Positions 4,770 through 23,775 of a stretch of 64,000 nt of DNA are shown here, piece by piece. Below the pieces are notes generated by a model that ran no database searches, was not told the origin of the DNA, and was given only the letters and a program-made list of their open reading frames with translations. Position 1 is the stretch's first letter. Each line of letters begins with the position of its first letter. Source of the DNA: Candidatus Nomurabacteria bacterium. Its GTDB lineage: Bacteria; Patescibacteriota; Minisyncoccia; Phycocordibacterales; UBA9973. Location: positions 10,748-74,747 of the forward strand of contig JAPLXO010000011.1 of the NCBI GenBank assembly GCA_026396065.1. The letters run 5' to 3'. Position numbers and translations under genes: made by a program.

Positions 4770-5378
4770 ATGAGTGAAGAAAATGAAGAGATAGTACAAC
4801 AAAATACTCAAATTCCAGCAAAATTTCCTGATGAAGTTACAGACGATAGTGAAGTCGTCGAATTTGAATTCAATGAAGACGGGGAAGAAGATTTAAAGAA
4901 AACATTAAAGAAACTCCGAGCGGATTTGAAGCAGGCGAAGGCCGAAAAGGAAGAATACCTCACTGGCTGGCAGAAAGAGCGAGCGGGTTTTGTGAATTAT
5001 AGAAAAGAAGAGGAGGATAGAAATACTAATTTTAAAAATATTATTCAAGAAAGAATGATGGATAAGTTTCTCTCTGTAATGGATAGCTTTGATATGGCTT
5101 TTGCAAATAAAACTGCTTGGGAGAAAGTAGATGCGAATTGGCGCACTGGTGTGGAATATATTTATAATCAAATGAACAGTGTGTTCGAAGAGTACGGCGT
5201 ACAAGCCATAGGCAAAGTCGGCGAAAAGTTTAATCCAGAACTTCATCAATCAGTGGAGCATGTAGTTACTGACGATCAATCAAAAGATGACACCATCGCC
5301 ATAGTTCTACAAAAAGGCTACAAATTAAAAGATAAAGTTCTCCGCCCAGCACGAGTGAATGTGTTTGGGTTTAAATAA
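4770..5378 (+). CDS. grpE: Nucleotide exchange factor GrpE
   Basis: 202 aa; acidic N-terminus, coiled coil, ..GFVNYRKEEED.. (cf. FENYRKR) and C-terminal GY.L.DKVLRPARV.VFG beta-domain. Confidence 0.88.
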   Translation: MSEENEEIVQQNTQIPAKFPDEVTDDSEVVEFEFNEDGEEDLKKTLKKLRADLKQAKAEKEEYLTGWQKERAGFVNYRKEEEDRNTNFKNIIQERMMDKFLSVMDSFDMAFANKTAWEKVDANWRTGVEYIYNQMNSVFEEYGVQAIGKVGEKFNPELHQSVEHVVTDDQSKDDTIAIVLQKGYKLKDKVLRPARVNVFGFK

Positions 5379-6741: not shown

Positions 6742-8637
6742 ATGTCAAAAATAATAGGAATAGATTTGGGTACTACAAATAGTGCGGTTGCGATTATCGA
6801 AGGAGGACAACCAAAAATAATAGAAAATATCGAAGGAGCGAGAACAACTCCGAGTATTGTTTCTGTTGCAAAAAACGGAGATCGTCTCGTCGGCCTTCTT
6901 GCGAAGCGTCAGGCGGTGACGAATCCAGAAAATACCGTCTACGGTATCAAGCGTTTTATGGGTCACAATTTTGAAGATCCAGAAGTGCAAAAGGACTTGA
7001 AGAATGCTTCATTTAAATTGCAAAAAGGAAAAGACGGCGGAGTAGAAGTAATGATTGGCGACAAATGGATGCGCCCAGAAGAAATCTCTGCGATGATTTT
7101 AACTAAAATAAAAACAGACGTCGAAGCAAAGATCGGAGAAAAAATCACTGAAGCTGTTATTACAGTTCCAGCATATTTCAACGATGCACAAAGAAAAGCT
7201 ACAAAGGATGCAGGTATGATCGCAGGACTCGATGTAAAAAGAATCATCAACGAGCCGACAGCGGCAGCCCTCGCTTATGGTTTCAATAAAAAGAAAAATG
7301 AAAAGATCGTCGTGTATGACTTTGGAGGAGGAACTTTCGATGTATCAGTTCTCGAAATCGGTGACGATGTTATCGAAGTAAAATCAACAGATGGCGACAG
7401 TCACCTCGGAGGTCGTGATATAGATCACAAGATTATTGCTTGGATCGCAGAAGAATATAAAAAGACTTCTGGCGTAGATGTTCGTAACGACAAATTGGCC
7501 TTGCAACGCCTCGATGAAGCTGCTGAAAAGGCTAAAATCGAGCTTTCTACTGCTATTGAAAGTGAAATCAACATTCCTTTCATCACTTCTACTGCAGAAG
7601 GTCCACAGCACTTATTGCTCAAAATGACTCGTGCACAACTCGAATCAATTGCCGATGAATATATCACTCGTTCTATCGAAATCACAAAAAGAGCAATGAC
7701 TGCTTCTGGTTTCAAAATGGAAGACATGAATGAAATCATAATGGTCGGAGGACAAACAAGAATGCCAAAGATTGTCGAAGAAGTGAAAAAAGTTTTTGGA
7801 AAAATGCCAAACCTCTCTATCAATCCAGATGAAGTCGTCGCCCTCGGTGCTGCAGTGCAAGCCGGAGTATTGCAAGGTGATGTGCGTGATGTTTTACTCC
7901 TCGATGTTATTCCACTTTCACTAGGTATCGAGACACTCGGAGGTGTGGCTACAAAATTAGTCGAGAGAAATACTACTATTCCATCTAGTAAATCACAGAC
8001 ATTTTCTACGGCAGCTGACAATCAAACAAGTGTAGAAATTCACATCGTGCAGGGTGAGAGACCAATGGCTTCAGATAATAAAAGTTTAGGACGATTTATT
8101 TTGGACGGAATTCCACCAGCACCGCGTGGTATGCCACAAGTCGAAGTTTCTTTTGATGTTGATGCAAACGGAATTCTAAATGTCACTGCAAAAGATAAAG
8201 CTTCAGGTAAAACTCAAACAATTAAAATCGAAGCAAGTTCAGGATTGAAAGATGAAGACATAAAGAAGATGCAAGCTGATGCAGAAATGCATGCTGAAGA
8301 AGATGCAAAGAAAAAAGAATTGGCAGAAATTAAAAATTCTTGTGAAATGACTATTTACTCTGCAGAAAAAGCTTTGAAGGACAATGAAGCGAAAATTCCT
8401 GCAGATGTAAAAGATGGTGTGAATGCAAAAATTACAGCACTTCGCGGGTTGAAAGACGGTACAGATATGGAAGCTATCAAAAAAGCCCTCGAAGAACTTT
8501 CAGCCGAAATGTCCAAGATCGGTGAAGCTATGAGTAAAGCCGGCGAGCAAGCTCCAGCCGGAGGTGCACCCGAAGAACAAGCTACCGAAGTCAAGGGCGA
8601 AGAAGTAAAGCCAGAAGGTGAAGAGCCTAAAGCATAA
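6742..8637 (+). CDS. dnaK: Molecular chaperone DnaK (Hsp70)
   Basis: 631 aa; [12 protein letters not shown]; DLGGGTFD; substrate-binding domain; acidic C-terminal tail. Confidence 0.97.
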
Positions 8638-8644
8638 AAACTAA

Positions 8645-8676
8645 CAAAAAAAAGCTCAAAAGAGCTTTTTTTTGTT
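8645..8676 (+). terminator. Rho-independent terminator after dnaK
   Basis: aaagctc-aaa-agagcttt plus T8. Confidence 0.7.
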
Positions 8677-8701: not shown

Positions 8702-10978
8702 ATGGAAGATATTGTAATACCTGAAAATAAAGACATGACCTATCTTGGTCAGACTACTTTTCGTAACAAAAATGTTTTATTTGGAATAAAACGCAAAGAT
8801 CGTCGTCAGCACTGTTATTTGCTCGGAAAATCAGGTACTGGTAAATCTGCTCTCATGACAAATATGGTTTTGCAAAACATCATTAATGGTGATGGTGTTT
8901 GTGTTGTCGATCCACACGGAGAACTTGTAGAAAGTATTGTATCAGCTATTCCAGCTCATCGTTTAAAAGATGTTATTTATTTTAATCCTGCTGACACTGA
9001 TTATCATATTGGTTTTAACGTTTTAGAGTTATTAGATCCTCGTTACAAACATCTTGTCGCCTCAGGATTGATGGGAATTTTCACAAAAATTTGGGCGAAT
9101 GCATGGAGTGCTAGAATGGAATACATTTTAAATAATTGTATTTTGGCTTTACTCGATACACCAGGTACTACACTTCTTGGAATTCCTAGAATGCTCGTCG
9201 ACAAAGATTATCGTCAGAAAATAATTACAAATTTGAAAGATCCAGTCATTAAAGCTTTTTGGATTCATGAATATGAAGCTTGGCAAGATAAATTTCGAAA
9301 TGAAGCTATTGCTCCGATTCAAAATAAAGTCGGACAATTTCTTTCTACTTCCATTATTCGTAATGTCGTAGGGCAATCAAAAAGTACAATTGATCTTTTT
9401 CAAGTAATGAATGAAGGAAAGATTTTTTTGGTGAATGTTTCCAAGGGACGTATCGGTGAAGATAACTCTGCACTTCTCGGAGGTATGCTTATTACAAAAA
9501 TTCAGCTCGCTGCAATGGAGCGTGTGCGTATTCCAGAAGAAGAACGTAAAGACTTTTACCTGTATGTCGACGAATTCCAAAATTTCGTAACAGATGCTTT
9601 TGCTAGTATTCTTTCAGAAGCTCGTAAATATCGTTTAAATCTTACTATAGCTCACCAGTACACAGCTCAGCTTGTCACTGCCAATGGTTCCGCTGTGCGT
9701 GATGCTGTATTCGGCAACGTAGGGACTATGATTATTTTCCGTGTAGGTGCTGACGATGCTGAATTCTTAGAAAAAGAATTTGAACCAGAATTCATGGCTA
9801 CAGATATTGTGAACTTGCCAAACTATCGAATTTATTTAAAATTGATGATTGATGGTATTACGAGTAGACCTTTTTCTGCTAAGACACTTGCACCGATGAA
9901 TAAAAACAGTAAGGTAAATACTGAGGAAGAAGTGATAAAGTCTTCAAGAACTCTGTATGGAAGATCGAAAGAAGTCGTTGAATCAGAAATAAATTCTTGG
10001 AGTGGAATGTCTTTGGGAGACATAGTACCTCCAGGTGGCAATGCTGGTGCAGATGTAGAAAAATTCCCTGTAATTTGTTCAAATTGTATGAAAGAAACTA
10101 CCGTGCCATTCAAGCCAGAAGAAGGACGCGCTGTATATTGTAAAGAGTGTATTGCTAAAATGAAGACAGGCGAGTTGAAGCCTACAAAAGGATCAGCACG
10201 TCAAATAAAATACGATGAAGAAACATTTTTCAAACCTCTTGCCGATCTAGGTATTGAATTTACTTCAAAAGAAGCTCCACCAAAAGTAATACCAAAGCCA
10301 TACATGCCACCAGTATCAAAACCAGGAATTTTTGGGACTGTTAAAAAAGTCTTTCAAAATACTGTTGGAGCAAAACCTCCATCTCCAATTTCAAATATAC
10401 CAAAACCAATTTCTCCAATTACTACTACTAATGTTAATGTTCCAGTTCCACCAAAACCTCCTATAAATATTTTTAAACCACCAACTCCTTCTCTTAATAT
10501 TCCAACACCGGTAATACCAACACCTACTCCACCAGTTAAACCTATTATTTCTACTACTCCAATTGAGTCACAAAAACCTCAAACTGTAGTTGAAAAACCA
10601 AAAGAAAATACAGCACTTAAAGATTTGTTAAATAAAGCCTTGGCACCAAAGCCAATTACACCAGTAGTACCACCTATACAGCCAGTTGTTCCAGAAATAA
10701 AAAAAGTTGAACCAGAACCAATTTCTTTAGCTTCTTTAAAAAATCCAACAATTGCAACTCCTATTTCACAAAATAAAGATAGATCTGCGAGTGCTGAAAA
10801 TATGAATAAGTTAAAAGAATTTGTAGCAAAAATTGCAGAACCTCTTAAAGCAGAAGAAATAAAAAAAGAGGAACAAATTCCTACACAACCTCCAGTCACA
10901 CCTGCACCTACTCCGACGATACAAAAAACAACAAAAGAAGTTCCAGAAGATGTATTAAGGAAAATTTTAGAAGAATAA
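8702..10978 (+). CDS. VirD4/TraG/TraD-like (FtsK-HerA superfamily) P-loop ATPase with C-terminal CxxC-CxxC zinc ribbon and ~250-aa Pro/Thr-rich low-complexity tail
   Basis: Walker A LLGKSGTGKS; Walker B FYLYVDEFQNF; EARKYRLNLTIAHQYTAQL resembles the TraG-D_C/VirD4 motif (...RGYGI.L.LI.Q...QL). Zinc ribbon CSNC...x...YCKEC. No N-terminal TM helices. The ORF track starts at a TTG (8672) inside the dnaK terminator, so the first ATG (8702) is preferred. Paralog of 20448-21920. Confidence 0.6.
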   Translation: MEDIVIPENKDMTYLGQTTFRNKNVLFGIKRKDRRQHCYLLGKSGTGKSALMTNMVLQNIINGDGVCVVDPHGELVESIVSAIPAHRLKDVIYFNPADTDYHIGFNVLELLDPRYKHLVASGLMGIFTKIWANAWSARMEYILNNCILALLDTPGTTLLGIPRMLVDKDYRQKIITNLKDPVIKAFWIHEYEAWQDKFRNEAIAPIQNKVGQFLSTSIIRNVVGQSKSTIDLFQVMNEGKIFLVNVSKGRIGEDNSALLGGMLITKIQLAAMERVRIPEEERKDFYLYVDEFQNFVTDAFASILSEARKYRLNLTIAHQYTAQLVTANGSAVRDAVFGNVGTMIIFRVGADDAEFLEKEFEPEFMATDIVNLPNYRIYLKLMIDGITSRPFSAKTLAPMNKNSKVNTEEEVIKSSRTLYGRSKEVVESEINSWSGMSLGDIVPPGGNAGADVEKFPVICSNCMKETTVPFKPEEGRAVYCKECIAKMKTGELKPTKGSARQIKYDEETFFKPLADLGIEFTSKEAPPKVIPKPYMPPVSKPGIFGTVKKVFQNTVGAKPPSPISNIPKPISPITTTNVNVPVPPKPPINIFKPPTPSLNIPTPVIPTPTPPVKPIISTTPIESQKPQTVVEKPKENTALKDLLNKALAPKPITPVVPPIQPVVPEIKKVEPEPISLASLKNPTIATPISQNKDRSASAENMNKLKEFVAKIAEPLKAEEIKKEEQIPTQPPVTPAPTPTIQKTTKEVPEDVLRKILEE

Positions 10979-11021: not shown

Positions 11022-11336
11022 TTGCAAAATCACATGTTTTGGAATAAAAATACAAATATACATACAGAAAGTACAGAAGAATTTTTTGACGACGAAAGTT
11101 TTAAAGAAATAAAGATGACCTTTATTGGTCGCGTGGTTACTATTATTATTGCTTCACTTTCATTGATCGCCGCACTTGCTTGGGAGGAAACACTTCACGA
11201 TTTATTCAGAGAATTTTTCACTAGTAGTGAATCAATACAAGGTAAACTACTTTATGCAATATTGGTGACTCTGCTTACTGTCATTGTTTCTGTTTTCGTC
11301 GGCCGAAGATTCCTTAAAAAAGCACGAAGGAAATAA
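11022..11336 (+). CDS. Small hypothetical membrane protein (two predicted TM helices)
   Basis: 104-aa ORF; hydrophobic stretches IGRVVTIIIASLSLIAALA and LLYAILVTLLTVIVSVFVG; between ATPase and paralog array. Confidence 0.4.
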   Translation: MQNHMFWNKNTNIHTESTEEFFDDESFKEIKMTFIGRVVTIIIASLSLIAALAWEETLHDLFREFFTSSESIQGKLLYAILVTLLTVIVSVFVGRRFLKKARRK

Positions 11337-11380: not shown

Positions 11381-13135
11381 ATGAATCCAGAAATTAAAAA
11401 TTGTCAGAACTGTAAAAAAGAATTTACGATAGAAACGGAAGATTTTTCTTTTTATAAAAAAATGAAAGTTCCACCACCGACATTTTGTCCAGAGTGTAGA
11501 ATGCAAAGAAGATTGGCTTGGAGAAATGAGCGTGGACTATATCGTAGAAATAGTGATGTTCCAGGGAAAGAAAACGAACAGATAATTTCTACTTATCCAC
11601 CTACTATAAATGTAAAAGTATACGACAATGATTATTGGTGGAGTGATAATTGGGAACCTACTGATTATGCTATGGAGTATGATTTTTCACGACCTTTTTT
11701 TGAACAATTTCGGGAACTTTTGTCTAAAGTGCCATTAATAAGTTTTGCTGATAGTAAAGGAGTAAATAATCAATATTGTAATTATATTACTGAAGGTAAG
11801 AATTGTTATATGCTTTCTGCTGCATGGAGTTGTGAAGATTGTTTACTTGGAAATAGAAATTCTTTTTGCAAGGAAACTGTTGATTCTTATGTGTGTCATA
11901 AAACGGAATTTTCTTATGGAAATATTTATTGTGGAGAATCATATAAATTATTTTATAGTGAACATTCGTACAATTGTACTGATTCATATTTTCTTTACGA
12001 CTGCCGAAACTGTATTGATTGTTTTATGTGTTATGGTTTGAGAAATAAATCTTACTGTATTGAAAATGTTCAATACACACAAGAAGAATATAGAGAAAAA
12101 ATGAAAGATATAAATTTGGGTAATTATGAAACTGTTGAAAATAATAAAACTTATTTTAATAAATTTAAACAAAATGCAGTTCGTAAGTACGCCAATAATA
12201 CAAAATGTATAAATGTGACGGGAGATAATGTCGAAAATGCAAAAGATGCACAATATTGTTTTGATTTACCAGGAGGAATTGAAAATATTAAATACTGTAA
12301 TTGGGGTACGTATGGATTAAAAGATTCTTATGATACAGGGCCGGGGACAGGTGGTAAATCAGAAATGACCTATGAAGGAGTTAGTATTGGTGTAGCAAAT
12401 GCTAATTGTTCTTTTGGTGCAATTGTTTGGAATTCTAGTAATGTACAATATGCTTTTAATTGTTACTCTACGAATAATTGTTTTGGTGTCGTCAGTTTGA
12501 AAAGTAAATCTTACTGTATTTTAAATAAGCAGTATACCAAAGAAGAATATAATGAATTGCTACCGAAAGTCATTCAACATATGAATGATATGCCTTATGT
12601 AGATAAAAAAGGACGTGTGTATAAATATGGGGAGCTTTTTCCAATAGAACTTTCTCCTTATGCATACAATGGTGCAACGGTACAAGATTTTTTCCCTCTA
12701 GATAAAGCCACTGCAGTAGGAGAGGGTTTTAATTGGCAAGATGAAACGGAGAGGAATTATGAGGTTACTTTACCAGCCTCAAGTATTCCTTTAAATATTG
12801 AAGAAGTTAAAAATGATATACTGTCGCAAACTTTAGGTTGCATAAACGCTTCAGGAGATGTACAGGGTTGCACGAAGGCATTTAGGTTAGTTTCAAAAGA
12901 ATTAGATTTTTATAAAAGATTTAATATTCCTATTCCACATTTTTGTCCAAATTGTAGACACGCGGAGCGTGTCAGTAGACGCAACCCTATGAAACTTTGG
13001 CACAGACAATGCATGTGTGATAAAACAAATCATGGTCATGCAGCTAAGTGTGAAGTTGAATTTGAGACTGCATATGCTCCAGATAGACCAGAGATCGTCT
13101 ATTGTGAAAAGTGTTACCAACAGGAGATTTATTAG
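11381..13135 (+). CDS. Cysteine-rich zinc-ribbon protein, paralog 1 of unrecognised family (584 aa)
   Basis: N-terminal CQNC...FY.K.KVPPPTFCPECR zinc ribbon; two internal copies of C..C.DCF.C..LRN..YCI.N.QY..EEY; C-terminal FY.R.N.P.P.FCP.CRH.ER...NP.KLW.RQC.C...RPEIVYCEKCYQQEIY. Confidence 0.7.
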   Translation: MNPEIKNCQNCKKEFTIETEDFSFYKKMKVPPPTFCPECRMQRRLAWRNERGLYRRNSDVPGKENEQIISTYPPTINVKVYDNDYWWSDNWEPTDYAMEYDFSRPFFEQFRELLSKVPLISFADSKGVNNQYCNYITEGKNCYMLSAAWSCEDCLLGNRNSFCKETVDSYVCHKTEFSYGNIYCGESYKLFYSEHSYNCTDSYFLYDCRNCIDCFMCYGLRNKSYCIENVQYTQEEYREKMKDINLGNYETVENNKTYFNKFKQNAVRKYANNTKCINVTGDNVENAKDAQYCFDLPGGIENIKYCNWGTYGLKDSYDTGPGTGGKSEMTYEGVSIGVANANCSFGAIVWNSSNVQYAFNCYSTNNCFGVVSLKSKSYCILNKQYTKEEYNELLPKVIQHMNDMPYVDKKGRVYKYGELFPIELSPYAYNGATVQDFFPLDKATAVGEGFNWQDETERNYEVTLPASSIPLNIEEVKNDILSQTLGCINASGDVQGCTKAFRLVSKELDFYKRFNIPIPHFCPNCRHAERVSRRNPMKLWHRQCMCDKTNHGHAAKCEVEFETAYAPDRPEIVYCEKCYQQEIY

Positions 13136-13137
13136 TT

Positions 13138-14886
13138 ATGGAATCAAAAACACCAAAATCAGACGTACTTATAGATGAAATCCTTGCAGGGCTTGTTCCA
13201 CATACACGTATATGTAAATGGAAAGGCGAGCATCAGCATTGTGAAGGCAAATTTGAAATTACGAATGAAGATATTTCGTTTCTTAAAATGCTTCGAGTTC
13301 CTGCTCCAAATTTCTGTCCTACTTGTAGAAGAATTAAAAGACAATCTTTTATGGGTTTCGCGCAACTTTTTAAGAGGAAATGTGATGTAGTTGGACACGA
13401 TGAATCTATCATCTCTGTTTTTTCTAAAGAATGCCCTTTCCCAGTTGTTGATTATAAGTATTTTGCTTCTGATGAATTTGATTCTTTTTTATATCGTAAA
13501 AATTATGAAGAGAATACAAGTCCAATGGAACAACTTTTTTCTCTAAGGAAAATTTTTCCAATGCCTTCATTTTTAAATCGTGATTCTTCGAGTATAAATA
13601 GTGATTATTCAAATGGAGGTAGAGATAATAAAAACTGTTATTACACTAGTGGTTGCTATACGGTAGAAAATGCTTGGTATTCAAATATGCTCGTGAAGAG
13701 CAAAGAAATAATGGATTGCCGAACTGTAAAACATTCAGATCATGTATATTCGAGTCTTTATTCAGACCATCTATATAAATCTTATTTTACTTATTTTTCC
13801 AATAGCTGTACAGATAGTATGTTTCTTTTTGATTGTAGAAATTGTATAAACTGTTTTGGTTGTGTAAATTTGCGTAATGCTAAATATTGTATTTGGAATG
13901 AACAATATAGTAAAGAAGATTATGAACAATTTATAAAATCAAATCTACCATTCTCTAGAGATTTTTTAGAAGAAAATAAGCAAAAATTTTGGCAACTTGT
14001 AAAATCACTTCCAATAAATGCTTCTAGAAATATGACTGTAAAAAACAATGTAAATGGTGTGATGAATGTGAATTCGAATAATTTATATGATGTCACAGAA
14101 TCTAGTAAAGCAGAAAATGTACGTCATGCAGATGGCGCTCTTACACATCAAAATTCTATGGATTTACTATACTCGGGCGGATCTAGTTTGCTTTACGGTA
14201 CTATAAATATCGGTTCTCAATCGAGCAACGTTCGATTTTCAGTTTCATGTAAATTTTCTACTAACTCAGAATTTATTTTTAATTCAAATAATCTAGATAA
14301 TTGTTTTATGTGTTTTGGTTTGCAGCATAAATCTTATTGTATTTTAAACAAACAATATAGCCCAGATGAATATTTTAAAATAATAGATGAAATAAAATCT
14401 GACATGATAAAAAGGGGAGAATACGACGACGGACTAAGTTTTGAATTTTCTGCCCAAGCATATAATTTTTCATTAGCCCAGATTTCTTTTCCTCTTACAG
14501 AACAAGAAATAATAAAATTAGGTGGTTATATGGCTGAAGAGCCAGAAAGTAATGCCGGAGATATGAAAATTTTATCAAAAGAAGAAGTGCCACAAACAAT
14601 AGATGAAGTATCAGATGACATTGTAGATTATGCAATTAAATGTGAGGTTACTGCTAGGCCTTTCAGGATTACTCCTTCAGAATTACAATTTTATAGAATA
14701 ATGAAATTACCACTTCCTACTATACATCCGATAGTCAGAATGAGAAAATATTATGAACTGGCACCAATCGGTAAAAGCTACCCTGCTGTTTGTTCTAAAT
14801 GTGGTAAATCATTTCGATCATTATTTGATCCTAAAGACGGTTATAAGCTATACTGTGAAGATTGTTATAAACAAGAAGTATATTAA
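13138..14886 (+). CDS. Cysteine-rich zinc-ribbon protein, paralog 2 (583 aa)
   Basis: Same architecture; starts 2 nt after the paralog 1 stop; ends ...YCEDCYKQEVY. Confidence 0.7.
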   Translation: MESKTPKSDVLIDEILAGLVPHTRICKWKGEHQHCEGKFEITNEDISFLKMLRVPAPNFCPTCRRIKRQSFMGFAQLFKRKCDVVGHDESIISVFSKECPFPVVDYKYFASDEFDSFLYRKNYEENTSPMEQLFSLRKIFPMPSFLNRDSSSINSDYSNGGRDNKNCYYTSGCYTVENAWYSNMLVKSKEIMDCRTVKHSDHVYSSLYSDHLYKSYFTYFSNSCTDSMFLFDCRNCINCFGCVNLRNAKYCIWNEQYSKEDYEQFIKSNLPFSRDFLEENKQKFWQLVKSLPINASRNMTVKNNVNGVMNVNSNNLYDVTESSKAENVRHADGALTHQNSMDLLYSGGSSLLYGTINIGSQSSNVRFSVSCKFSTNSEFIFNSNNLDNCFMCFGLQHKSYCILNKQYSPDEYFKIIDEIKSDMIKRGEYDDGLSFEFSAQAYNFSLAQISFPLTEQEIIKLGGYMAEEPESNAGDMKILSKEEVPQTIDEVSDDIVDYAIKCEVTARPFRITPSELQFYRIMKLPLPTIHPIVRMRKYYELAPIGKSYPAVCSKCGKSFRSLFDPKDGYKLYCEDCYKQEVY

Positions 14887-14888
14887 TT

Positions 14889-14951
14889 ATGGAAACAAAA
14901 AACTGTCAAAATTGTCCCGATTTTTTAAAAATCGAGGATCCACGATTCTAA
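14889..14951 (+). pseudogene. Truncated ancestral N-terminal leader of paralog 3 (METKNCQNCPDFLKIEDPRF*), interrupted by a ~100-nt palindromic insert
   Basis: 20-codon ORF begins like the other paralogs (METKNCQNC). It then runs into the inserted element and a stop. ATGA overlap with the restart codon at 14951. Confidence 0.5.
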
Positions 14952-16684
14952 TGAATTATAATCGGGATAAAAAAGATATGGAACATCAATCAGAAAGTAA
15001 AATATGTCAGAATTGTAAGACTTCGTTTATTATAAAAGAAGAAGATTTTAATTTTTATGAAAAAATCAAAGTTCCTCCACCGACATTTTGCCCGGAGTGT
15101 AGAAACATACAACGTTTTGCTACTAGAAATTCAAAATCTTTATATAAACGTGCTTGTGATGGCTGTAAAAAAGAAGTTATATCACGATTTTCACCGCATA
15201 ATCCAGCAGTTATGTATTGCCGAGATTGTTGGTGGAGTGATAATTGGGACGCACTTTCTTTTGCAAAAGATTACGATTTTTCTAAAACTTTTTTTGAACA
15301 ATTTAAAGAACTTCTTTTCTCTGTACCACATGTATCACTTTTAAATAATAATATGCATGAAAGTGATTACTCAAACATGGAATCAGATGATAAAAGATGC
15401 TATCTAACCTTTGGAGGACATTATAATGAAGATTGTGCTTTTACTGAATATAGTCTTTGGGGACGTGAAGTATATGATTCTTATTGGTCATTAAAATCGG
15501 AACAATGTCATGGATGTTCTCTTGTTGAGCGTTGCTATCGCACTTATGGATCTGAACAATGTTATGACTGTCTCGATACACTTTTTTCTTTTGATTGTAC
15601 AAATTGTTCAAATATTATTGGTTGTATAGGGTTGAGAAATAAATCATATTGTATTTTTAATCAACAGTATTCTAAAGAAGAATTTTTTGAAATTAAAGAA
15701 AATTTAAATATTGGTTCATATAGAGCTCGAAAAGAACTAGAAGAGAAATCAAAAACATTTTGGCTTAGTTTCCCACATAAAGAGAGTTTGATAACTCATT
15801 CAAATGATTGTACTGGAAATAGTATAGTTAATTCAAAAAACTCAAAAAACATTTGGCAGGCAGATAGTGTTGAGGATTCCAAATATAGTTATATCGCAGC
15901 TTGGAATAAAAACTGTTATGACGAAACATCGGCTGGTAATGACGAGCTTTGTTATCTGTGCGCAAATGGTGGTGGTTTATATAATTCTATCGCTATATTA
16001 TATTCTTTTGGTTCAAATGTAGATAAGAAAAAACAAAGTTTTAATTGTGGTTATTCTTATACTGTTCTCAACTGCACTGATTGTTTTGGTTGTGTAGGAA
16101 TTCGTAATAAACAATATTGTATTTTGAACAAACAATATACCAAAGAAGAGTATTTTGAACTTTTAGAAAAAATTAAAAAAAGTATGTTGGAAAATCCTTT
16201 CCAATCACAAAAGACAGGACAAGTATTTAGCTATGGGGATTTCTTTCCATCAGAGCATTCACTTTTTGCTTACAATGAGACAGTAGCACAAGATTTATAT
16301 CCAAAAGATAAAGATTCTGCAGAGGCTCAAGGTTTTGTTTGGCGAGAAGAACCTGAACCACACTACGACTTTAATCATTATCAAATTCCTGATGATATAA
16401 AAGACGTAGATGATTCTATTTTGTCTCAAGTGTTAAAATGTGAAGAAAGTGGTAAGGGTTATAAAATAGCTCGATCTGAGTTAGCATTTTATCAAAAAAT
16501 GCAGATTCCAATACCTCGTATTTCGCCACTTATACGTATTCGAGACCGTGTACGTGCATTGTTACCATTTAAACTTTTTGATAGGCAATGTCAGAAATGT
16601 AATAAGGATATAAAAACTCCTTATTCTCCAGAACGCCCAGAAATTATCTACTGTGAAAAGTGTTACCAGCAGGAAGTATATTAA
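14951..16684 (+). CDS. Cysteine-rich zinc-ribbon protein, paralog 3 (577 aa from restart Met)
   Basis: MNYNRDKKDMEHQSESKICQNCKTSFII...; same family architecture; ends RPEIIYCEKCYQQEVY. Confidence 0.65.
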   Translation: MNYNRDKKDMEHQSESKICQNCKTSFIIKEEDFNFYEKIKVPPPTFCPECRNIQRFATRNSKSLYKRACDGCKKEVISRFSPHNPAVMYCRDCWWSDNWDALSFAKDYDFSKTFFEQFKELLFSVPHVSLLNNNMHESDYSNMESDDKRCYLTFGGHYNEDCAFTEYSLWGREVYDSYWSLKSEQCHGCSLVERCYRTYGSEQCYDCLDTLFSFDCTNCSNIIGCIGLRNKSYCIFNQQYSKEEFFEIKENLNIGSYRARKELEEKSKTFWLSFPHKESLITHSNDCTGNSIVNSKNSKNIWQADSVEDSKYSYIAAWNKNCYDETSAGNDELCYLCANGGGLYNSIAILYSFGSNVDKKKQSFNCGYSYTVLNCTDCFGCVGIRNKQYCILNKQYTKEEYFELLEKIKKSMLENPFQSQKTGQVFSYGDFFPSEHSLFAYNETVAQDLYPKDKDSAEAQGFVWREEPEPHYDFNHYQIPDDIKDVDDSILSQVLKCEESGKGYKIARSELAFYQKMQIPIPRISPLIRIRDRVRALLPFKLFDRQCQKCNKDIKTPYSPERPEIIYCEKCYQQEVY

Positions 16685-16686
16685 TT

Positions 16687-18459
16687 ATGGAAACACGAAA
16701 TTGTCAAAATTGTAAAAAAGATTTCACTATAGAGGTGGAGGATTTTAATTTTTATCAAAAGATAAAAGTTCCACCACCGACGTGGTGCCCAGAGTGTCGA
16801 CTTATTCGTCGTCTTGCTTATCGTGAAGAACGGTCTTTTTATAAAGATGAATGTGATAAATGCGGTCATGAAATAGTAAGTTTATTTGCACCAGAATCTG
16901 ATCTTCCTGTCTTTTGTTCTCCTTGTTGGTGGAGTGATAGTTGGGATGCTACATCTTATGGAAAAGACTACGATTTTTCTCGTCCATTTTTTGAGCAATT
17001 ATATCAATTAATGAAAGTCGTACCAAATCAGGCTACAAATACACGAAATTGTACTGATTGTAAATATTCTCATGGCAATATACGTTGTAAAAATTGTACT
17101 TTTGTTTTTGCTGGTATACAGTCTATTAATTGCTATTATTGTTCAACACCGATTTTCACAAAAGATTCTTTTGATTCAAGCTTTATTATAAATGCTGATC
17201 ATGTATATGAAGGTGTACATATAGGGGGAATATATAATTCAAAATTTATTTATTTTTCTGATGAATGCTTGGACTGTTCTTTTATTTTTAATTGTGTTGG
17301 ATGTTCAGATTGTTTTGGTTGTGTAAATTTAAGAAATCAAAAATATTGTATTTTTAATATTCAATATTCTAAAGAAGAATATAAAAAAGAAATTTTAAAA
17401 TGGGATCTAGGTAGTTATGAAAATTTACAAAAAGCACGAGAACTTTTTATGAAACTTTACCATAAAACACCAAGACGTTTTGCATTAATTTCAAATTCTA
17501 CAAATTGTATTGGTGATGATATTCAAAATACTAAAAATTGTAAAATATGTTTTTCTGCTACTCATGGAGTAGAAAATTCTAAATTTATTTTTCAATGTGG
17601 ATTATTGTTGAAAGATAGTTATGATGTGACACTAGGCGGAGATACTTCTGAGCTTGCATATGAAGTAAATGGTAGCACTCAATCACAAAAAAGTTTTTTT
17701 TGTAGGGGTAGTAATAACTTAAGAGATGTTGAATATTCAGATAATATATACAATGGATCCAATCTTTTTGGTTGCGTAAAATTGAGACATAAAAAATATT
17801 GTATTTTAAATAAACAATATACAAAAGAAGAATATGAAGATTTAATACCAAAAATAAAACAGCATATGATAGATATGCCATATGTTGATAAAAAAGGACG
17901 AGTCTATAAATATGGGGAATTTTTTCCAGTAGAAATAGCTTTATTTGCTTACAATGAAACCTGGGCACATCAATATTTTCCTATTACAAAAGAAAAAGCA
18001 ATAGAACAAGGTTACAATTGGCGTGATCCGATAGAAAGGGATTATAAAATAACTATTAACATTGGGAATTTGCATAATCATATTAAAGATGTGACTGATT
18101 CTATTTTAGATGAAGTGATAGAATGTGAACATAATGGAAAAAACTGTAATCAACAGTGCACTACTGCTTTTAGAATTTTACCAAATGAATTGGGTTTTTA
18201 TAGACAAATGAATTTGGCTTTGCCTAGAATATGCCCAAACTGTCGTCATTATGAAAGATTAAAAAAAACAAATCCACCAAAATTATGGCATGGAAAATGT
18301 ATGTGCGATGGTGTAGAATCAAGTAATAAAGAATATAGAAATACTATTAAGCATTTGCATGGAGAGGAGCCTTGCCAAAATGAATTTGAAACTTCTATAA
18401 GTAGTGAAAGAAAAGAAATAGTTTATTGTGAAAAATGTTATCAGGATGAATTTATATGA
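16687..18459 (+). CDS. Cysteine-rich zinc-ribbon protein, paralog 4 (590 aa)
   Basis: METRNCQNCKKDFTIEVEDFNFYQKIKVPPPTWCPECR...; ends KEIVYCEKCYQDEFI; first ATG is 16687 (the ORF-track start 16660 is an alternative codon). Confidence 0.7.
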   Translation: METRNCQNCKKDFTIEVEDFNFYQKIKVPPPTWCPECRLIRRLAYREERSFYKDECDKCGHEIVSLFAPESDLPVFCSPCWWSDSWDATSYGKDYDFSRPFFEQLYQLMKVVPNQATNTRNCTDCKYSHGNIRCKNCTFVFAGIQSINCYYCSTPIFTKDSFDSSFIINADHVYEGVHIGGIYNSKFIYFSDECLDCSFIFNCVGCSDCFGCVNLRNQKYCIFNIQYSKEEYKKEILKWDLGSYENLQKARELFMKLYHKTPRRFALISNSTNCIGDDIQNTKNCKICFSATHGVENSKFIFQCGLLLKDSYDVTLGGDTSELAYEVNGSTQSQKSFFCRGSNNLRDVEYSDNIYNGSNLFGCVKLRHKKYCILNKQYTKEEYEDLIPKIKQHMIDMPYVDKKGRVYKYGEFFPVEIALFAYNETWAHQYFPITKEKAIEQGYNWRDPIERDYKITINIGNLHNHIKDVTDSILDEVIECEHNGKNCNQQCTTAFRILPNELGFYRQMNLALPRICPNCRHYERLKKTNPPKLWHGKCMCDGVESSNKEYRNTIKHLHGEEPCQNEFETSISSERKEIVYCEKCYQDEFI

Positions 18460-18572: not shown

Positions 18573-20315
18573 ATGGAAACACGAAACTGTCAAAATTGTA
18601 AAAAAGATTTCACTATAGAGGTGGAGGATTTTAATTTTTATCAAAAGATAAAAGTTCCAGCGCCGACTTTTTGCCCAGATTGTAGAACAATACGTAGACT
18701 ATGTTGGAGAAATGAAATGTCTCTTTTTAAGAGAAAATGTGATGCTCCTGGACATGAAGAAATGCTCATTACATGTTTTCCTCCAGAAGAAAAACTCACT
18801 GTATATGATTCTACATCTTGGTGGGGTGATTCTTGGGATGCAATACAATATGGAAAAGAATATGATTTTTCCAAATCATTCTTTGAACAGTGGAGAGATT
18901 TAAGAAATAGTATTCCACTTCAGGCACTTTCAAACATAAAAGCGACTAACAGTGATTATTGTAATGTGGCAGAGGGCAGTAAAGATAGCTATATGTGTTC
19001 GGGTACTTGGAAAATAGAAAGAACTCTTTACTCTAATAGAGTTTCAGAAACAAAAGATTCCTCCGACTTGTATATAGTGTATCGTTCTGAGCTTTGTTAT
19101 GAAGATGTAATATGTTCTGATTGTTACCATTTAATGTACTCTTTAGATTGTAAAAGTTGTGTTGACTCATTTTTTCTCTATGATTGTGTGGGTTGCACAG
19201 ACTGTTTTGGTTGTAGTAATTTACGCAATAAATCATATTGCATGTGGAACGAGCAATTGTCTAGAGAAGAATATTTTCGTCATTTAGCAGAATATAATTT
19301 AAAAAATCATGAGACTATATCGATTTTAAAAAATAAATTTAAAGAAATTTGTTTGCAATCTTTACATCGTTTTTCACTTCAAATAAAATCAGTAAATTCT
19401 ACTGGTGACAATTTAGAAGGTACAAAAAATTGCAAAGTGTGTTTTGATGTTTCTGGAAAAATGGAAGATTTGAAATATGTGCATTGGACAGCTATTAGTG
19501 CAAAAGACGCTTATGATTCTGGCCCTGGTATTGGACAAGTTGAACTTGCATATGAATCCTTTGACACTGGAATAGGTAATTTCCGTAGTCTTTTTACGAG
19601 TGTTGTATATAGTTGTAACGATGTTGAATATTCATTTAATTGTCATGGTTCTTCGAATTTATTTGGTTGTATTGGAATTAGAAATAAAAAATACTGTATT
19701 TTAAATAAAGAATATACAAAAGGGGAATATGAAATATTATTGCCAAAAATTAAAGAGCAAATGATGCAAGTTCCATATATAGATAAAAAAGGAATTAATT
19801 ATAGATACGGTGAATTTTTTCCAGCAGAACTTTCTACTTTTTGTTATAACGAAACACAAGCACAAGATTATTTTCCAATAGATAAGGAATATGCATCTAA
19901 AATGGGATATCGTTGGCGTGATAAAAAGATAAGTGAATATCACATCACTATTGAATCAAAAGATCTTCCAGATTCTCTTGATGACGTTACAGATTCAATC
20001 ACTAATGAAATTATTGGATGTGAAAATAAAGATAAGATGAGTAATTATTGTAGAGGAGCATATAAAATAACTATCGATGAGCTGAATTTATATCGCAAGC
20101 TTGGAGTACCATTACCAAGACTTTGTTTTCTTTGTCGGCATGAAACTAGATTAAAAATGCGTAATCCAATGAAGCTTTGGAATAGACAGTGTATGTGTGA
20201 AAAAGAAAATCATCAACATAGTGGTAAATGTGAAATTACATTTGAAACATCATACGATCCTAATAGACCAGAAATAGTATATTGTGAAAAATGCTATCAA
20301 GCCGAGGTTTATTAG
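18573..20315 (+). CDS. Cysteine-rich zinc-ribbon protein, paralog 5 (580 aa)
   Basis: METRNCQNCKKDFTIEVEDFNFYQKIKVPAPTFCPDCR...; C-terminus NPMKLWNRQCMCEKENHQHSGKCEITFETSYDPNRPEIVYCEKCYQAEVY nearly identical to paralog 1. Confidence 0.7.
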   Translation: METRNCQNCKKDFTIEVEDFNFYQKIKVPAPTFCPDCRTIRRLCWRNEMSLFKRKCDAPGHEEMLITCFPPEEKLTVYDSTSWWGDSWDAIQYGKEYDFSKSFFEQWRDLRNSIPLQALSNIKATNSDYCNVAEGSKDSYMCSGTWKIERTLYSNRVSETKDSSDLYIVYRSELCYEDVICSDCYHLMYSLDCKSCVDSFFLYDCVGCTDCFGCSNLRNKSYCMWNEQLSREEYFRHLAEYNLKNHETISILKNKFKEICLQSLHRFSLQIKSVNSTGDNLEGTKNCKVCFDVSGKMEDLKYVHWTAISAKDAYDSGPGIGQVELAYESFDTGIGNFRSLFTSVVYSCNDVEYSFNCHGSSNLFGCIGIRNKKYCILNKEYTKGEYEILLPKIKEQMMQVPYIDKKGINYRYGEFFPAELSTFCYNETQAQDYFPIDKEYASKMGYRWRDKKISEYHITIESKDLPDSLDDVTDSITNEIIGCENKDKMSNYCRGAYKITIDELNLYRKLGVPLPRLCFLCRHETRLKMRNPMKLWNRQCMCEKENHQHSGKCEITFETSYDPNRPEIVYCEKCYQAEVY

Positions 20316-20447: not shown

Positions 20448-21920
20448 ATGGGAAAGCCGAATCGAGTTCAGATAATCAAATATGGTCCACCACCACCAGA
20501 GCTTCCGGTGTTTGGAAAGGTGCCTCCTGAAGAGGTTTCTTTTATTGGACGTACGAATTACGTCGCAGCACTTGAAGAAAAGAAATTTATTTTCGGAATT
20601 AAGCGCGTTGACCGCCGAAGACATTTATATATCATTGGAAAGTCTGGGGTTGGAAAAACAAAGCTTCTAGAATTGATGCTTCGCCAAGATGTGACATATG
20701 GCCACGGTCTTTGTCTTATCGATCCACACGGTGACGTTATCGATGCAATGCTCGATTATATTCCAAAAGAGCGTGTTGAAGACGTTTGTATTATTGACCC
20801 TGCTGATATTGATTTCCCAGCATCTTTCAATCCTTTGGCAAATGTCGACCCAATGTTCAAATTTCAATTGACTCAAGGGTTAATCGAAGTTTTCCAAAAA
20901 CAATTCGGTGCAAACTGGACACCACGTCTCGAGCACGTTTTTCGTTTTACTTGTCTCGCATTACTCGATTATCCGTATGCTACGATGCGCGGAATGATCT
21001 CGATGTTGACAGATAGAAATTATCGTCAGAAAGTCGTGGAATATATTACAGACGACATGGTGAAAAGATTCTTCGCTATCGAATTCGCGGACTGGTCTGA
21101 AAAATTCGATACTGACGCTATTATTCCACTTGTTAATAAACTAGGTCAATTTCTTTCTGATCCCTTGCTTCGTAATATTTTCGGACAGAAGCAAAATAAA
21201 ATAGATATTAGTAAATTGATGAATGAACAAAAAATAATTTTTATTAATTTGTCTAAAGGGCGCCTCGGTGAAGAAAATTCGTCTTTCCTTGGTTCGATGT
21301 TTTTGACTAAAATTAAACAGGCCGGAATGGAGCGCGCTAGTATTGCCGAACGTGACCGTAAAGATTTTTATATTTATGTGGACGAGTTCCAAAACGTAGT
21401 GACACAAACTTTCGAAAACATTTTGTCGGAAGCTCGAAAATACGGTTTGAACCTTACTATGGCTCATCAGTATGTCGGTCAAATTATTCCAAAAGTTCAC
21501 CAAGCTGTACTTGGTAATACAGGTAGTGTCATTTGTTTTCGTGTAGGTGGAGAAGATGCTGTAAAATTGAAACCCGAATTTGAGCCATTATTCGGAGTGA
21601 AAGACATGATCAACCTCGCCGTAGCAGAATTTTATATCAAAATGACGATTGATGGAGAGTCTTACGATCCATTTTCTGCAGAGACACTTCGTGTATTACC
21701 TCCAAATCATCCTTCATATCGACAAGAAATTATAAATGCATCACGTAGAAAATATTCAATTCCAAAAGACGATGCGCAAAAATTGATTCAAGAGGAAGAA
21801 GCTACAATTATTCGAAGTGCAGAAGAAAAAGCTATTATTTCAGGAAAAGGCAAAAATGAAGTTGACGAAAATGAAAAGTCTGCAAAACCAGTCGCTAAAG
21901 AAGCTGAACCTATGATATAA
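20448..21920 (+). CDS. VirD4/TraG/TraD-like (FtsK-HerA superfamily) P-loop ATPase, paralog 2 (490 aa; no zinc ribbon or Pro-rich tail)
   Basis: Walker A IIGKSGVGKT; Walker B FYIYVDEFQNV; EARKYGLNLTMAHQYVGQI; collinear with 8702-10978 over ~450 aa. Confidence 0.6.
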   Translation: MGKPNRVQIIKYGPPPPELPVFGKVPPEEVSFIGRTNYVAALEEKKFIFGIKRVDRRRHLYIIGKSGVGKTKLLELMLRQDVTYGHGLCLIDPHGDVIDAMLDYIPKERVEDVCIIDPADIDFPASFNPLANVDPMFKFQLTQGLIEVFQKQFGANWTPRLEHVFRFTCLALLDYPYATMRGMISMLTDRNYRQKVVEYITDDMVKRFFAIEFADWSEKFDTDAIIPLVNKLGQFLSDPLLRNIFGQKQNKIDISKLMNEQKIIFINLSKGRLGEENSSFLGSMFLTKIKQAGMERASIAERDRKDFYIYVDEFQNVVTQTFENILSEARKYGLNLTMAHQYVGQIIPKVHQAVLGNTGSVICFRVGGEDAVKLKPEFEPLFGVKDMINLAVAEFYIKMTIDGESYDPFSAETLRVLPPNHPSYRQEIINASRRKYSIPKDDAQKLIQEEEATIIRSAEEKAIISGKGKNEVDENEKSAKPVAKEAEPMI

Positions 21921-21967: not shown

Positions 21968-22012
21968 ATGAATTCTGAAACAAAAAATTGCCAAAATTGT
22001 CCCGATTTTTAA
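21968..22012 (+). pseudogene. Truncated ancestral N-terminal leader of paralog 6 (MNSETKNCQNCPDF*), interrupted by the same insert as paralog 3
   Basis: Read directly; the same CQNC then cccgattttt... junction as at 14910. Confidence 0.5.
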
Positions 22013-22035
22013 AAAATCGAGGATCCACGATTCTA

Positions 22036-23775
22036 ATGAATTATAATCGGGATAAAAAAGATATGGAACATCAATCAGAAAGTAAAATATGTCAGAATTG
22101 TAAGACTTCGTTTATTATAGAACAAGAAGATTTTAATTTTTATGAAAAGATGAAAGTTCCTGCACCGACATGGTGTCCTGAATGTCGAATGGCACGTAGA
22201 TTCCTATTTATGAATACTTGGAATCTATATAGGCGAAATTGTGAAAAATGTGGGGAAAGTACACTTTCAATGTTTTCAGAAGATAAACCACATAAGGTTT
22301 TTTGTTTACCTTGTTGGTGGTCGGATGATTGGGATGGTACTGAGTATGCTATCAATTACGACCCCTCTCGTTCTTTTTTAGAACAGATGAAAGAGCTGGA
22401 ACTCAGAACACCTTGGATGGCTAATACTATGATGTATACAATGAATGTAAATAGCCCGTATTGTAATGCTACTGGTCCAGTAAAGAATTGCTACATGCTT
22501 TTTTGGGCAGATTATTGTGAAAATTCTTTTTACTCATCTTATTTGAATACTTTAAAAGATTCTATAGATTGTTATCGGGTAGCTCATAGTGAATTGTGCT
22601 ATGAAGGCACTGGTTTGAATAAATGTTACAGAACTTTCTTTTCGGAAGAGTGTGATTCTTGTACCGATACGTGGTTTTCAAGAGCTTGTTCTGGTTTAGT
22701 AAATTGTTTTGGTTGTATAAATTTAAGAAATAAAAATTATTGTATATTCAATGAACAATATTCTCAGGAAGATTATTTTAAAAAAGTAAAAGAATTTGAT
22801 CTAATATCTCATACGTCATTAGAAAAAATAAAAAAAGATGTTTTAGTGTTTTGGAGTAAATATCCAAGGCGATTTTATAACGGTAATGCGTTAAACAAAA
22901 ACGTTAGTGGTGATTATATTTATGAATCTAAAAATGCACAGAATTGTTTTATGGTTTCTGGGGCTGAAGATTGTAAATTTACTCAATTTGTAAGTATTCC
23001 AAAAGCCAAAGATTGTTATGATAATACTGGTTGGGGAGATGGTTCAGAAAGAATTTATGAGTCTACTGTTGTCGGCCTCGGAGCAAGTAATGTAAAATTT
23101 TCTAATGAATGCTGGCCTAATGCAATGAATACAGAATACTCTATCTATGCTATAGGTGGATGTAAGGATATTTTTGGATGTGTCAATTTAAAGAAAAAAC
23201 AATATTGTATTTTAAATAAACAGTATTCAAAGGAAGAATATGAAAAGTTAAAAGAAAAAATTATTAAAGATATGAATATAAATACTTTTATAGACTCAAA
23301 AAATAGAGTTTATAAATATGGTGATTCATTACCTATTGAATTGTCGCCATTTTCTTACAATGAATCAAATGCTGGTAAGTTTTTACCAATTACAAAAGAA
23401 AAAGCTTTAGAGCAAGGTTTCACTTGGTCAGAAGGAAAGGTGAATGAATATAAGATTACAGCCAAGGCGTCTGATTTACCAGATACAATCTCATATACTA
23501 CAGATGAGATACTAAACGACGTGTTTGAATGTGCTTCTTGTCAAAGAGCTTATAAATTTACTCTAGGTGAATTGAATTTAATGAGAAGACTTTCTTTACC
23601 ATTACCACATAAATGTTTTCATTGTCGTCAAGAATTTCGTTTTTCTAGATCTAATCAGGCTAGATTATACGATAGAAATTACATGAAATGCGGAGTAGAT
23701 TTAAAAACTTCTTATAATCCAGATAACACAGAAATAGTTTATTGTGAAAAATGCTATCAGCAGGAAGTATATTAG
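22036..23775 (+). CDS. Cysteine-rich zinc-ribbon protein, paralog 6 (579 aa from restart Met)
   Basis: MNYNRDKKDMEHQSESKICQNCKTSFII...; ends NTEIVYCEKCYQQEVY; the first 28 residues are encoded by nucleotides identical to paralog 3. Confidence 0.65.
   Translation: MNYNRDKKDMEHQSESKICQNCKTSFIIEQEDFNFYEKMKVPAPTWCPECRMARRFLFMNTWNLYRRNCEKCGESTLSMFSEDKPHKVFCLPCWWSDDWDGTEYAINYDPSRSFLEQMKELELRTPWMANTMMYTMNVNSPYCNATGPVKNCYMLFWADYCENSFYSSYLNTLKDSIDCYRVAHSELCYEGTGLNKCYRTFFSEECDSCTDTWFSRACSGLVNCFGCINLRNKNYCIFNEQYSQEDYFKKVKEFDLISHTSLEKIKKDVLVFWSKYPRRFYNGNALNKNVSGDYIYESKNAQNCFMVSGAEDCKFTQFVSIPKAKDCYDNTGWGDGSERIYESTVVGLGASNVKFSNECWPNAMNTEYSIYAIGGCKDIFGCVNLKKKQYCILNKQYSKEEYEKLKEKIIKDMNINTFIDSKNRVYKYGDSLPIELSPFSYNESNAGKFLPITKEKALEQGFTWSEGKVNEYKITAKASDLPDTISYTTDEILNDVFECASCQRAYKFTLGELNLMRRLSLPLPHKCFHCRQEFRFSRSNQARLYDRNYMKCGVDLKTSYNPDNTEIVYCEKCYQQEVY

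Follow-up and report, generated by a model that had tools for sequence, protein, structure and literature searches.

What might an ATPase related to type IV coupling proteins (T4CPs) be doing directly behind dnaK on a Patescibacterial chromosome, and what are the zinc ribbon and the long tail that follow its motor core for? The question is raised by a stretch of 64,000 nt (the window) from Candidatus Nomurabacteria bacterium (assembly GCA_026396065.1, contig JAPLXO010000011.1, positions 10,748 to 74,747 of the forward strand), in which the gene that we call ATPase A is followed by five Cys-rich paralogous proteins, a sister ATPase (ATPase B) and a sixth paralog. A preliminary description, made from the sequence alone, had proposed that a ribbon shared with the Cys-rich proteins is an interaction or metal-binding module that links ATPase A to them, and that the tail is a flexible spacer. 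We observe that the ribbons do belong to one domain family and that the tail, in its conservation, is more than a plain spacer, and our tentative preference is to read ATPase A as an exapted ring ATPase with a ligand-capture appendage consisting of ribbon and tether. The features of ATPase A are listed here, with residue numbers referring to the 758-aa protein that starts at ATG 8702 and with A1 denoting an alignment of 63 ATPase A homologues.

8702-10978, + strand: ATPase A gene, from ATG 8702 to a product of 758 aa (the mechanically called open reading frame starts at TTG 8672)
8759-10021, + strand: T4CP/VirD4/TraD-like NTPase core, residues ~20-440, from Pfam and PDB matches
8825-8848, + strand: Walker A motif GKSGTGKS, beginning at residue 42, invariant in A1
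9554-9577, + strand: Walker B motif FYLYVDEF, with YVDEF invariant in A1
10061-10165, + strand: zinc ribbon, residues 454-488, PF23477 zf_Tbcl_2 / TIGR04272 CxxC-x17-CxxC, from Pfam and NCBIfam
10154-10261, + strand: conserved post-ribbon segment AKMKTGELKP...FFKPLADLGIEF, from A1 and the AlphaFold2 (AF2) model
10262-10936, + strand: disordered Pro/Lys/Thr/Ile-rich linker, residues 521-745, from composition, entropy and predicted local distance difference test (pLDDT) scores
10331-10369, + strand: island FGTVKKVF (A1 consensus GIFxxIKKVF, residues ~544-551)
10601-10642, + strand: island KENTALKDLLNKAL (A1 consensus ENxALKEILNKTL, residues 636-647)
10718-10744, + strand: island PISLASLKN (A1 consensus PISLxxLK, residues 675-680)
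10775-10834, + strand: island KDRSASAENMNKLKEFVAKI (A1 consensus KDRSASxEDMNKLKxLI, residues 693-708)
10937-10975, + strand: C-terminal peptide EVPEDVLRKILEE, a near-invariant, predicted amphipathic helix

With respect to the core, ATPase A exceeds the Pfam cut-offs for TrwB_AAD_bind (PF10412, 49.4 bits, spanning residues 42-359), T4SS-DNA_transf (35.6 bits) and TraG-D_C (32.6 bits), and its closest PDB relatives, by sequence profile as well as by fold, are TrwB and Cagbeta, with a Foldseek match to TrwB (1e9s; E = 6.6e-4, TM-score 0.36) that comes from a low-confidence model. The NCBIfam cut-offs for TraD and VirD4 are not reached, the best being TIGR03743 with 53.2 bits against a required 366. 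No transmembrane segment is predicted in ATPase A or ATPase B (Kyte-Doolittle(19) maxima of 1.13 and 1.00, respectively). Taken together, the matches, which take in the all-alpha-domain region, assign ATPase A, its Walker A and B motifs being intact, to the T4CP (VirD4/TraD/TrwB-like) branch of the FtsK/HerA-type ATPases. It is predicted to be soluble and, to judge from its sequence and surroundings, has lost the membrane anchor and any tie to a type IV secretion system (T4SS). A role as a defence system was considered and set aside, as PADLOC returned only a generic similarity to the mad8/HerA ATPase (54 bits) and paralog P4 had no match.

The 758-aa product is identical (100%) to a protein annotated by NCBI in a Candidatus Nomurabacteria metagenome-assembled genome (P0001). 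ATG 8702 is most likely its start and yields this annotated protein; the alternative, TTG 8672, belongs to the T-run of a hairpin that follows the dnaK stop codon. This hairpin (A8-GCTC-AAAA-GAGC-T8, 8643-8676) is terminator-like, and an extended -10-like site, TGaTATAAT, stands 5 nt upstream of ATG 8702, both being matches to a consensus only. Because both elements fall between dnaK and ATPase A, the ATPase A gene may be transcribed from a promoter of its own, to give a near-leaderless mRNA.

The ribbon stands after the core, as the preliminary description had it, and is a catalogued domain. Its sequence, FPVICSNCMKETTVPFKPEEGRAVYCKECIAKMK, holds two CxxC knuckles 17 residues apart (CSNCMKETTVPFKPEEGRAVYCKEC; four Cys codons at 10076-10150) and matches PF23477 with 48.9 bits (E = 5e-13, model positions 3-37 of 37) and TIGR04272 with 52.6 bits (positions 2-37 of 37), the cut-offs being 27 (gathering) and 36 bits. 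A protein search with ATPase A gave at least 8000 matches, and in the best 120, which were inspected for ribbon and tail, the ribbon is always present (120/120) in the form CSxCxxxxxVPFKPxxGRxVYCKxC, with VPFKPxxGRxVYCKxC almost fixed; in these homologues and in A1, the non-Cys residues VPFKP, GR, VY and K are nearly invariant. The ribbon region has a pLDDT of 77-85 (AF2), and throughout the family it carries a net charge of between +3 and +6, counted over 40 aa. Two small CxxC-x17-CxxC proteins of Methanosarcina bind zinc, as measured by inductively coupled plasma mass spectrometry (PMC12704099), and by analogy the ribbon of ATPase A probably binds one Zn2+.

An intact ribbon is missing from only a few complete A-type genes among the 80 related genome loci that make up our synteny set. 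The fourth Cys is replaced by Asp in L064 and L069, the first knuckle reads CxxxxC in L080, and a Ser-rich stretch takes the place of the ribbon in L073, where the downstream motifs are kept. Ribbon-deficient orthologues beside persisting paralogs, which would speak against a shared module, are rare: L069, with three Cys, retains the order B-paralog-paralog-A, and L073 is the case of complete ribbon loss.

The tail that follows is low in complexity, as previously described, and predicted to be disordered, and it also carries conserved elements. The whole tail amounts to ~275 aa and starts with a segment (residues 485-520) of consensus IAKIKSGExKPxKGSxxQIKxDExKFFKPLADLGIEF, with invariant columns K488, G490, E491, K493, L513, G517, I518 and E519 in A1 and predicted helices at 481-488 and 498-515 (AF2). 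The linker itself consists of 22% P, 13% K, 10% T and 10% I, its Shannon entropy falls to 2.8-3.4 bits compared to ~3.8 in the core, and its pLDDT stays below 50 apart from short helices at 637-647, 676-680 and 698-711. An origin of the Pro-rich region by tandem duplication was rejected, there being no tandem repeat in the DNA. The conserved islands, Leu/Lys-rich and amphipathic, coincide with the short helices predicted in the tail, including one at 749-757, and the protein ends in the near-invariant consensus KEVPEDVLRKILE (invariant columns E746, E749, L752, L756 and E757 in A1). An ending of the form [VI]P[EA]x[VIL]L[RKQLN] is found in 74 A-type proteins from the window and related loci and in no non-A open reading frame. 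The appendage of ATPase A is thus composed of a four-Cys ribbon, a ~35-aa helical segment that ends in LGIEF, and a linker of 160-430 aa, which is predicted to bear three to four short amphipathic helical motifs and which terminates in KEVPEDVLRKILE.

These observations bear on one explanation of the appendage, in which the ribbon is a structural staple without a ligand and the tail has no role beyond that of a low-complexity spacer or is a junk extension. The tail does vary freely in length (164-312 aa in the best 120 homologues and 160-431 aa over all relatives examined) as well as in composition, being Pro/Thr-rich here and Glu/Lys-rich in L059, L064 and L069, and the ribbon has been lost once, in L073. 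However, five islands as well as the terminal peptide are retained in both of the gene orders described below and in the ribbon-less L073, and the non-Cys residues of the ribbon named above are nearly invariant. We consider this explanation very improbable; judged by its alignment, the tail, though predicted to be disordered and variable in length, is not a plain spacer, with about five conserved islands and a terminal peptide, so that the earlier wording of a flexible spacer is half right. In the divergent clade of L059, L064 and L069, the tails reach 390-430 aa, long Glu/Lys-rich, coiled-coil-like stretches replace the Pro-rich sequence, and the proteins still terminate in KEVPEDxLRxIL.

Does the ribbon then link ATPase A to its Cys-rich neighbours? 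The paralogs, ATPase B and the chaperone genes around them are arranged as follows.

4770-5378: grpE
6742-8637, + strand: dnaK, directly upstream of ATPase A
11022-11336: small membrane protein of the DUF5654 family, between ATPase A and P1
11381-13135, + strand: P1, Cys-rich paralog
13111-14886, + strand: P2, with an exact CxxC-x17-CxxC ribbon at its C-terminus (14791-14865)
14753-16684, + strand: P3, with exact ribbons internally (15155-15229) and at the C-terminus (16589-16663)
16660-18459, + strand: P4, with an exact internal ribbon (16852-16926)
18573-20315, + strand: P5, Cys-rich paralog
20448-21920, + strand: ATPase B, paralog of ATPase A with 45% identity over the core
21900-21917, + strand: EAEPMI, terminal peptide of ATPase B (EPLI in a second clade)
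21988-23775, + strand: P6, the sixth clustered paralog, with an internal ribbon (22240-22314) and a C-terminal ribbon reduced to its last CxxC
23856-24509, + strand: dnaJ, directly downstream of the block of ATPases and paralogs
55934-57691: a seventh paralog copy, among cell-wall genes

The paralogs are proteins of ~590 aa that consist of zf_Tbcl plus ribbon, two internal Cys-rich repeat modules, and again zf_Tbcl plus ribbon. They belong to a family that is very large in Patescibacteria, with thousands of homologues, all named hypothetical, and that forms arrays of up to seven copies in the related loci. Their AF2 model is confident (pLDDT 82, predicted template modelling score 0.85); neither its fold nor the sequence led to a neighbour in the PDB. 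The 5' ends of P3 and P6 with their upstream sequence (14892-15104 and 21977-22189) are 93% identical over 213 nt, far above the 60-79% of the paralog bodies, which suggests a recent gene conversion or partial duplication there.

To compare the ribbons, a hidden Markov model (HMM) of 109 distinct ATPase A ribbons was scored against paralog segments, with 2000 shuffles per segment in which the Cys positions were kept fixed. The resemblance of the ATPase A ribbon to the paralog C-termini, part of the preliminary description, is borne out for P2 (24.6 bits, 0/2000 shuffles as good) and P3 (19.4 bits, 3/2000), is weak for P1, P5 and P6 (7.2-9.8 bits, 10-63/2000), and fails for P4. Among internal ribbons, those of P3 (19.8 bits, 1/2000) and P4 (15.1 bits, 3/2000) also beat their shuffles, while the P6 internal ribbon, like the P4 C-terminus, is not significant (4.6 bits, 221-264/2000). 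PF23477 itself exceeds its cut-off only at the P2 C-terminus (28.1 bits) and stays below it in P3 (23.8), internally in P4 (22.2) and in P6 (17.9), with no match in P1 or P5. In addition, hhalign of the ATPase A ribbon against the paralog alignment selects the internal ribbon (P4 residues 52-82; E = 6.6e-5, probability 64%) and not the C-terminus. The paralog tail RPEIVYCEKCY, earlier described as invariant, is only the latter half of an often remodelled ribbon: four of the six clustered paralogs have only the last YCEKCY knuckle in canonical form, and in a census of 117 paralogs from related loci the C-terminal ribbon has four Cys in 49 and only the last YCxxCY knuckle in 67, with an internal four-Cys ribbon in 35. 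In terms of sequence, the ribbons of ATPase A and the paralogs are homologous at the level of the domain family (PF23477/TIGR04272).

The CxxC-x17-CxxC domain is generic and is found far beyond this locus. At E ≤ 1e-3, a profile of ribbon plus post-ribbon segment matches 4532 clusters (50% identity), and stand-alone ribbon proteins of archaea are among them; some of the matched proteins are small and string together 2-5 tandem ribbons by Arg/Gly-rich linkers, and several of these bear names from Thermoplasmatota archaea. The ribbon of ATPase A represents the consensus form: it shares 8-13 of 21 non-Cys residues with the archaeal stand-alone ribbons, compared to 3-6 of 21 with those of the neighbouring paralogs. 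When solved structures were searched by sequence, the tail and the profiles of ribbon and paralogs yielded chance-level LIM/ZZ-type matches only. Stand-alone proteins made of ribbon plus tail were considered and dropped, since four of the five short top matches inspected look like partial A-type proteins that miss the N-terminal ATPase part; the fifth (P0241) was not assignable.

A dedicated protein-protein docking module, through which ATPase A recognises or co-assembles with the paralogs by ribbon-ribbon or ribbon-tail contacts, would account for one domain family in both partners, for their tight gene linkage in two arrangements, for a basic ribbon in ATPase A facing paralog ribbons and a following WWSDxWD segment that are neutral to acidic, and for the near-invariant paralog C-terminus YCEKCYQQEVY. 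There is precedent in ClpX, whose zinc-binding domain recognises adaptor and substrate peptides. We nevertheless judge it unlikely: unrelated clusters that contain the domain number in the thousands and the ATPase A ribbon is closer to archaeal ribbons than to those of its neighbours, it is almost invariant whereas the paralog ribbons are often degenerate, ATPase B is equally linked to the paralogs without a ribbon, and among the 43 well-flanked loci (at least 5 kb on each side) seven have the order dnaK-A-dnaJ and keep ribbon and tail in ATPase A with no paralog or ATPase B within 10 kb. On such comparisons of sequence and gene order the evidence leans against a specific module between ATPase A and the paralogs; what remains of the earlier proposal is the common domain family and the expected metal binding, and the sharing of the domain is in itself no evidence for docking.

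ATPase B was correctly described as lacking a ribbon (0/40 B-type proteins), but it does have a tail of its own. After the core comes a conserved IRSAEEKAII, followed by a short acidic/Lys linker, and the charged tail of ~55 aa ends in EAEPMI (or EPLI) in 37 of 40 B-type proteins; the related genes with this terminal peptide lie in loci from L001 to L077. Two gene orders are observed, that of the window, grpE-(PAR)-paaX-like-dnaK-A-PARn-B-dnaJ (PAR, paralog), and B-PARn-A, away from dnaK. Among the well-flanked loci, paralogs are present in 28, ATPase B in 29 and dnaK in 22 of 43. Since ATPase A, the paralogs and ATPase B co-occur in both orders, and since the clusters of the 80 related loci contain no further conserved gene, the stable unit is A + paralogs + B. 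The DUF5654 gene was considered as a component and rejected, being absent from this position in all 80 loci.

The remaining gene content of the window is that of an ordinary chromosome (rpsK, rpsD, rpoA, grpE, dnaK, dnaJ, a penicillin-binding protein gene, tRNA synthetases, dnaB, recR, scpAB, an mraY-like gene, ftsW and murG), and its 64 kb contain neither virB4 nor a relaxase gene nor anything else of a T4SS. This bears on whether A and B could be coupling proteins in the usual sense, delivering the paralogs as effector-like cargo with invariant C-termini to a channel encoded elsewhere, while ribbon and tail would receive the cargo or its adaptors in the manner of DotL and TraD. Fold and family membership of both ATPases would suit such a role, tandem diversifying paralogs with a fixed C-terminus resemble effector arrays, and a virB4-type T4SS is encoded elsewhere in many Patescibacteria genomes (PMC12102498). 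Yet neither ATPase has a membrane anchor, virB4 is missing from the window, only 148 of 5,713 Patescibacterial T4CP homologues lie near virB4, and the paralogs, multi-zinc folded proteins without a signal peptide, would be awkward cargo. Furthermore, in Ca. Southlakia epibionticum a t4cp homologue far from virB4, which is possibly not an orthologue of A or B, is not essential for epibiotic growth, unlike other T4SS genes. We regard secretion coupling as quite improbable.

The position within the heat-shock operon suggests a role in proteostasis instead, with A and B as protein-remodelling ring ATPases that work with DnaK, DnaJ and GrpE, the tail motifs docking a chaperone or client and the zinc-rich paralogs being clients or redox/zinc-sensing co-factors. 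The block lies within a grpE-dnaK-...-dnaJ operon here and in 22/43 well-flanked loci, dnaK is the upstream neighbour of ATPase A in 25 of 60 related loci, dnaJ follows ATPase B in loci of the first gene order, and the amphipathic, Leu/Lys-rich tail islands would suit such docking. Despite this, the B-PARn-A order away from dnaK implies that the adjacency to chaperone genes is lineage-specific, the terminator-like hairpin and promoter-like site separate dnaK from ATPase A, and we know of no T4CP-type ATPase that remodels proteins together with Hsp70. We give this explanation little credence as well. At 217 aa, the DnaJ of the window is short compared to the ~360 aa seen in many related loci; a J domain and a portion of DnaJ_C are recognised in it, but the CXXCXGXG zinc-finger domain gives no match.

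We return to the exapted ring ATPase with a ligand-capture appendage as the tentatively preferred reading. ATPase A, possibly together with ATPase B, would form a soluble ring NTPase, and a mixed A/B ring is possible. If the ring forms as in solved T4CPs, each subunit would extend a long tether, whose motifs and terminal peptide would dock onto partner proteins. There is a parallel in F-plasmid TraD, where the end of a disordered C-terminal extension docks on TraM, and Pfam PF12696 is named for this docking. The basic zinc ribbon beside the motor would then act as a ligand-binding knob that binds the substrate. We lean, with modest confidence, towards a nucleic acid as that substrate, because the ribbon is basic, members of its family are accompanied by Arg/Gly-rich linkers and the ATPase comes from a DNA-binding family, T4CPs being DNA-binding translocases. 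The paralogs would owe their divergent copies of the ribbon to work on the same class of ligand or to being the clients, and not to ribbon-ribbon binding. The functional unit would be A-(paralog)n-B, with ATPase B as a ribbon-less sister that presents its own terminal peptide, EAEPMI.

Several points weigh against this reading. The partner of the ribbon is something that we purely infer, and the Arg/Gly-linker context is drawn from archaeal proteins without assigned function. The AF2 model of ATPase A is poor (mean pLDDT 55.7), so that neither the ring nor the placement of the ribbon can be assessed from it. The ribbon is not strictly indispensable, since it is reduced to three Cys in L064 and L069 and lost in L073. 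The neutral to acidic paralog ribbons would also fit direct electrostatic docking to the basic ribbon of ATPase A, and from the conserved place among grpE, dnaK and dnaJ one could expect the client to be a protein and not a nucleic acid.

As for what is new, the ribbon domain and its fusion to the ATPase are already captured by automatic annotation and are not new biology: orthologues of ATPase A are often named 'CxxC-x17-CxxC domain-containing protein' by NCBI or JGI. We found nothing in the literature on PF23477/PF13451 or on a link between Patescibacterial T4CPs and dnaK, and no description of the motif-bearing tail, the ATPase B terminal peptide, the A-PARn-B unit or its insertion in a heat-shock operon. 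It is possible, though doubtful, that A-(paralog)n-B represents a cytoplasmic machine which is found throughout the Paceibacteria and has so far not been described. Two soluble exapted coupling ATPases, each with its own tethered docking peptide and one of them with a zinc ribbon, would then work on, or together with, the arrayed multi-zinc proteins of ~590 aa, and in many lineages the block would be wired into the heat-shock operon. A 2025 survey reported the above 5,713 VirD4-like T4CP homologues from 2,918 Patescibacteria genomes; it raised their exaptation to other functions as a possibility, and the role of such orphan T4CPs is an acknowledged open point (PMC12102498). About two homologues per genome would fit an A/B pair, and such a machine, if real, would explain most of these orphans. 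The locus gives them an anatomy, namely soluble, paired as A and B, with a ribbon and a motif-bearing tether on A and a different terminal peptide on B, and both firmly tied to arrayed members of a multi-zinc protein family that still awaits characterisation. A vague annotation is thereby turned into testable interactions, those of the partners of KEVPEDVLRKILE, of EAEPMI and of the ribbon. The ribbon itself is a catalogued domain, and that the paralogs share it is no evidence of a specific link between them and ATPase A. Elsewhere in the window, a 2083-aa protein (28363-34614) of this Candidate Phyla Radiation genome has an architecture like that of Tc/Rhs toxins, in which SpvB and TcdB_toxin_midN are combined with FG-GAP and RHS-repeat domains.

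Compared to known systems, the tail of ATPase A is reminiscent in its layout of FtsZ, which has a disordered linker and a C-terminal docking peptide (DIPxFLRK), and of the Pro/Gln-rich linker of FtsK: a variable, disordered, Pro-rich linker leads to a short, conserved, amphipathic terminal peptide. EVPEDVLRK of ATPase A loosely recalls DIPxFLRK, with a one-residue gap needed, and no ftsZ is present in the window or the related loci. ClpX likewise carries a C4 zinc module on a ring ATPase, where it captures adaptors and substrates; this module is, however, N-terminal and placed on an AAA+ unfoldase, and no sequence relationship to the ATPase A ribbon was found. Within the CxxC-x17-CxxC family, ATPase A matches over the full length of the domain and above both curated cut-offs; unlike the many members that are small with 2-5 tandem ribbons and Arg/Gly-rich linkers, or the small Methanosarcina proteins, it has a single copy behind a ring-ATPase core, after which come a conserved helix and then the long tail. 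Finally, ATPase A shares Pfam families and Walker A and B motifs with the T4CPs (TrwB of R388, VirD4, F-plasmid TraD and H. pylori Cagbeta), and with TraD also a disordered C-terminal extension with a conserved extreme end; two of these T4CPs, TrwB and Cagbeta, are its best PDB matches, the fold comparison coming from the low-confidence model. It differs from them in having no N-terminal transmembrane anchor, in scoring far below the NCBIfam TraD/VirD4 cut-offs, in its housekeeping chromosomal context free of T4SS genes across the window, and in bearing a zinc ribbon and having a sister ATPase and arrayed Cys-rich proteins as its companions.

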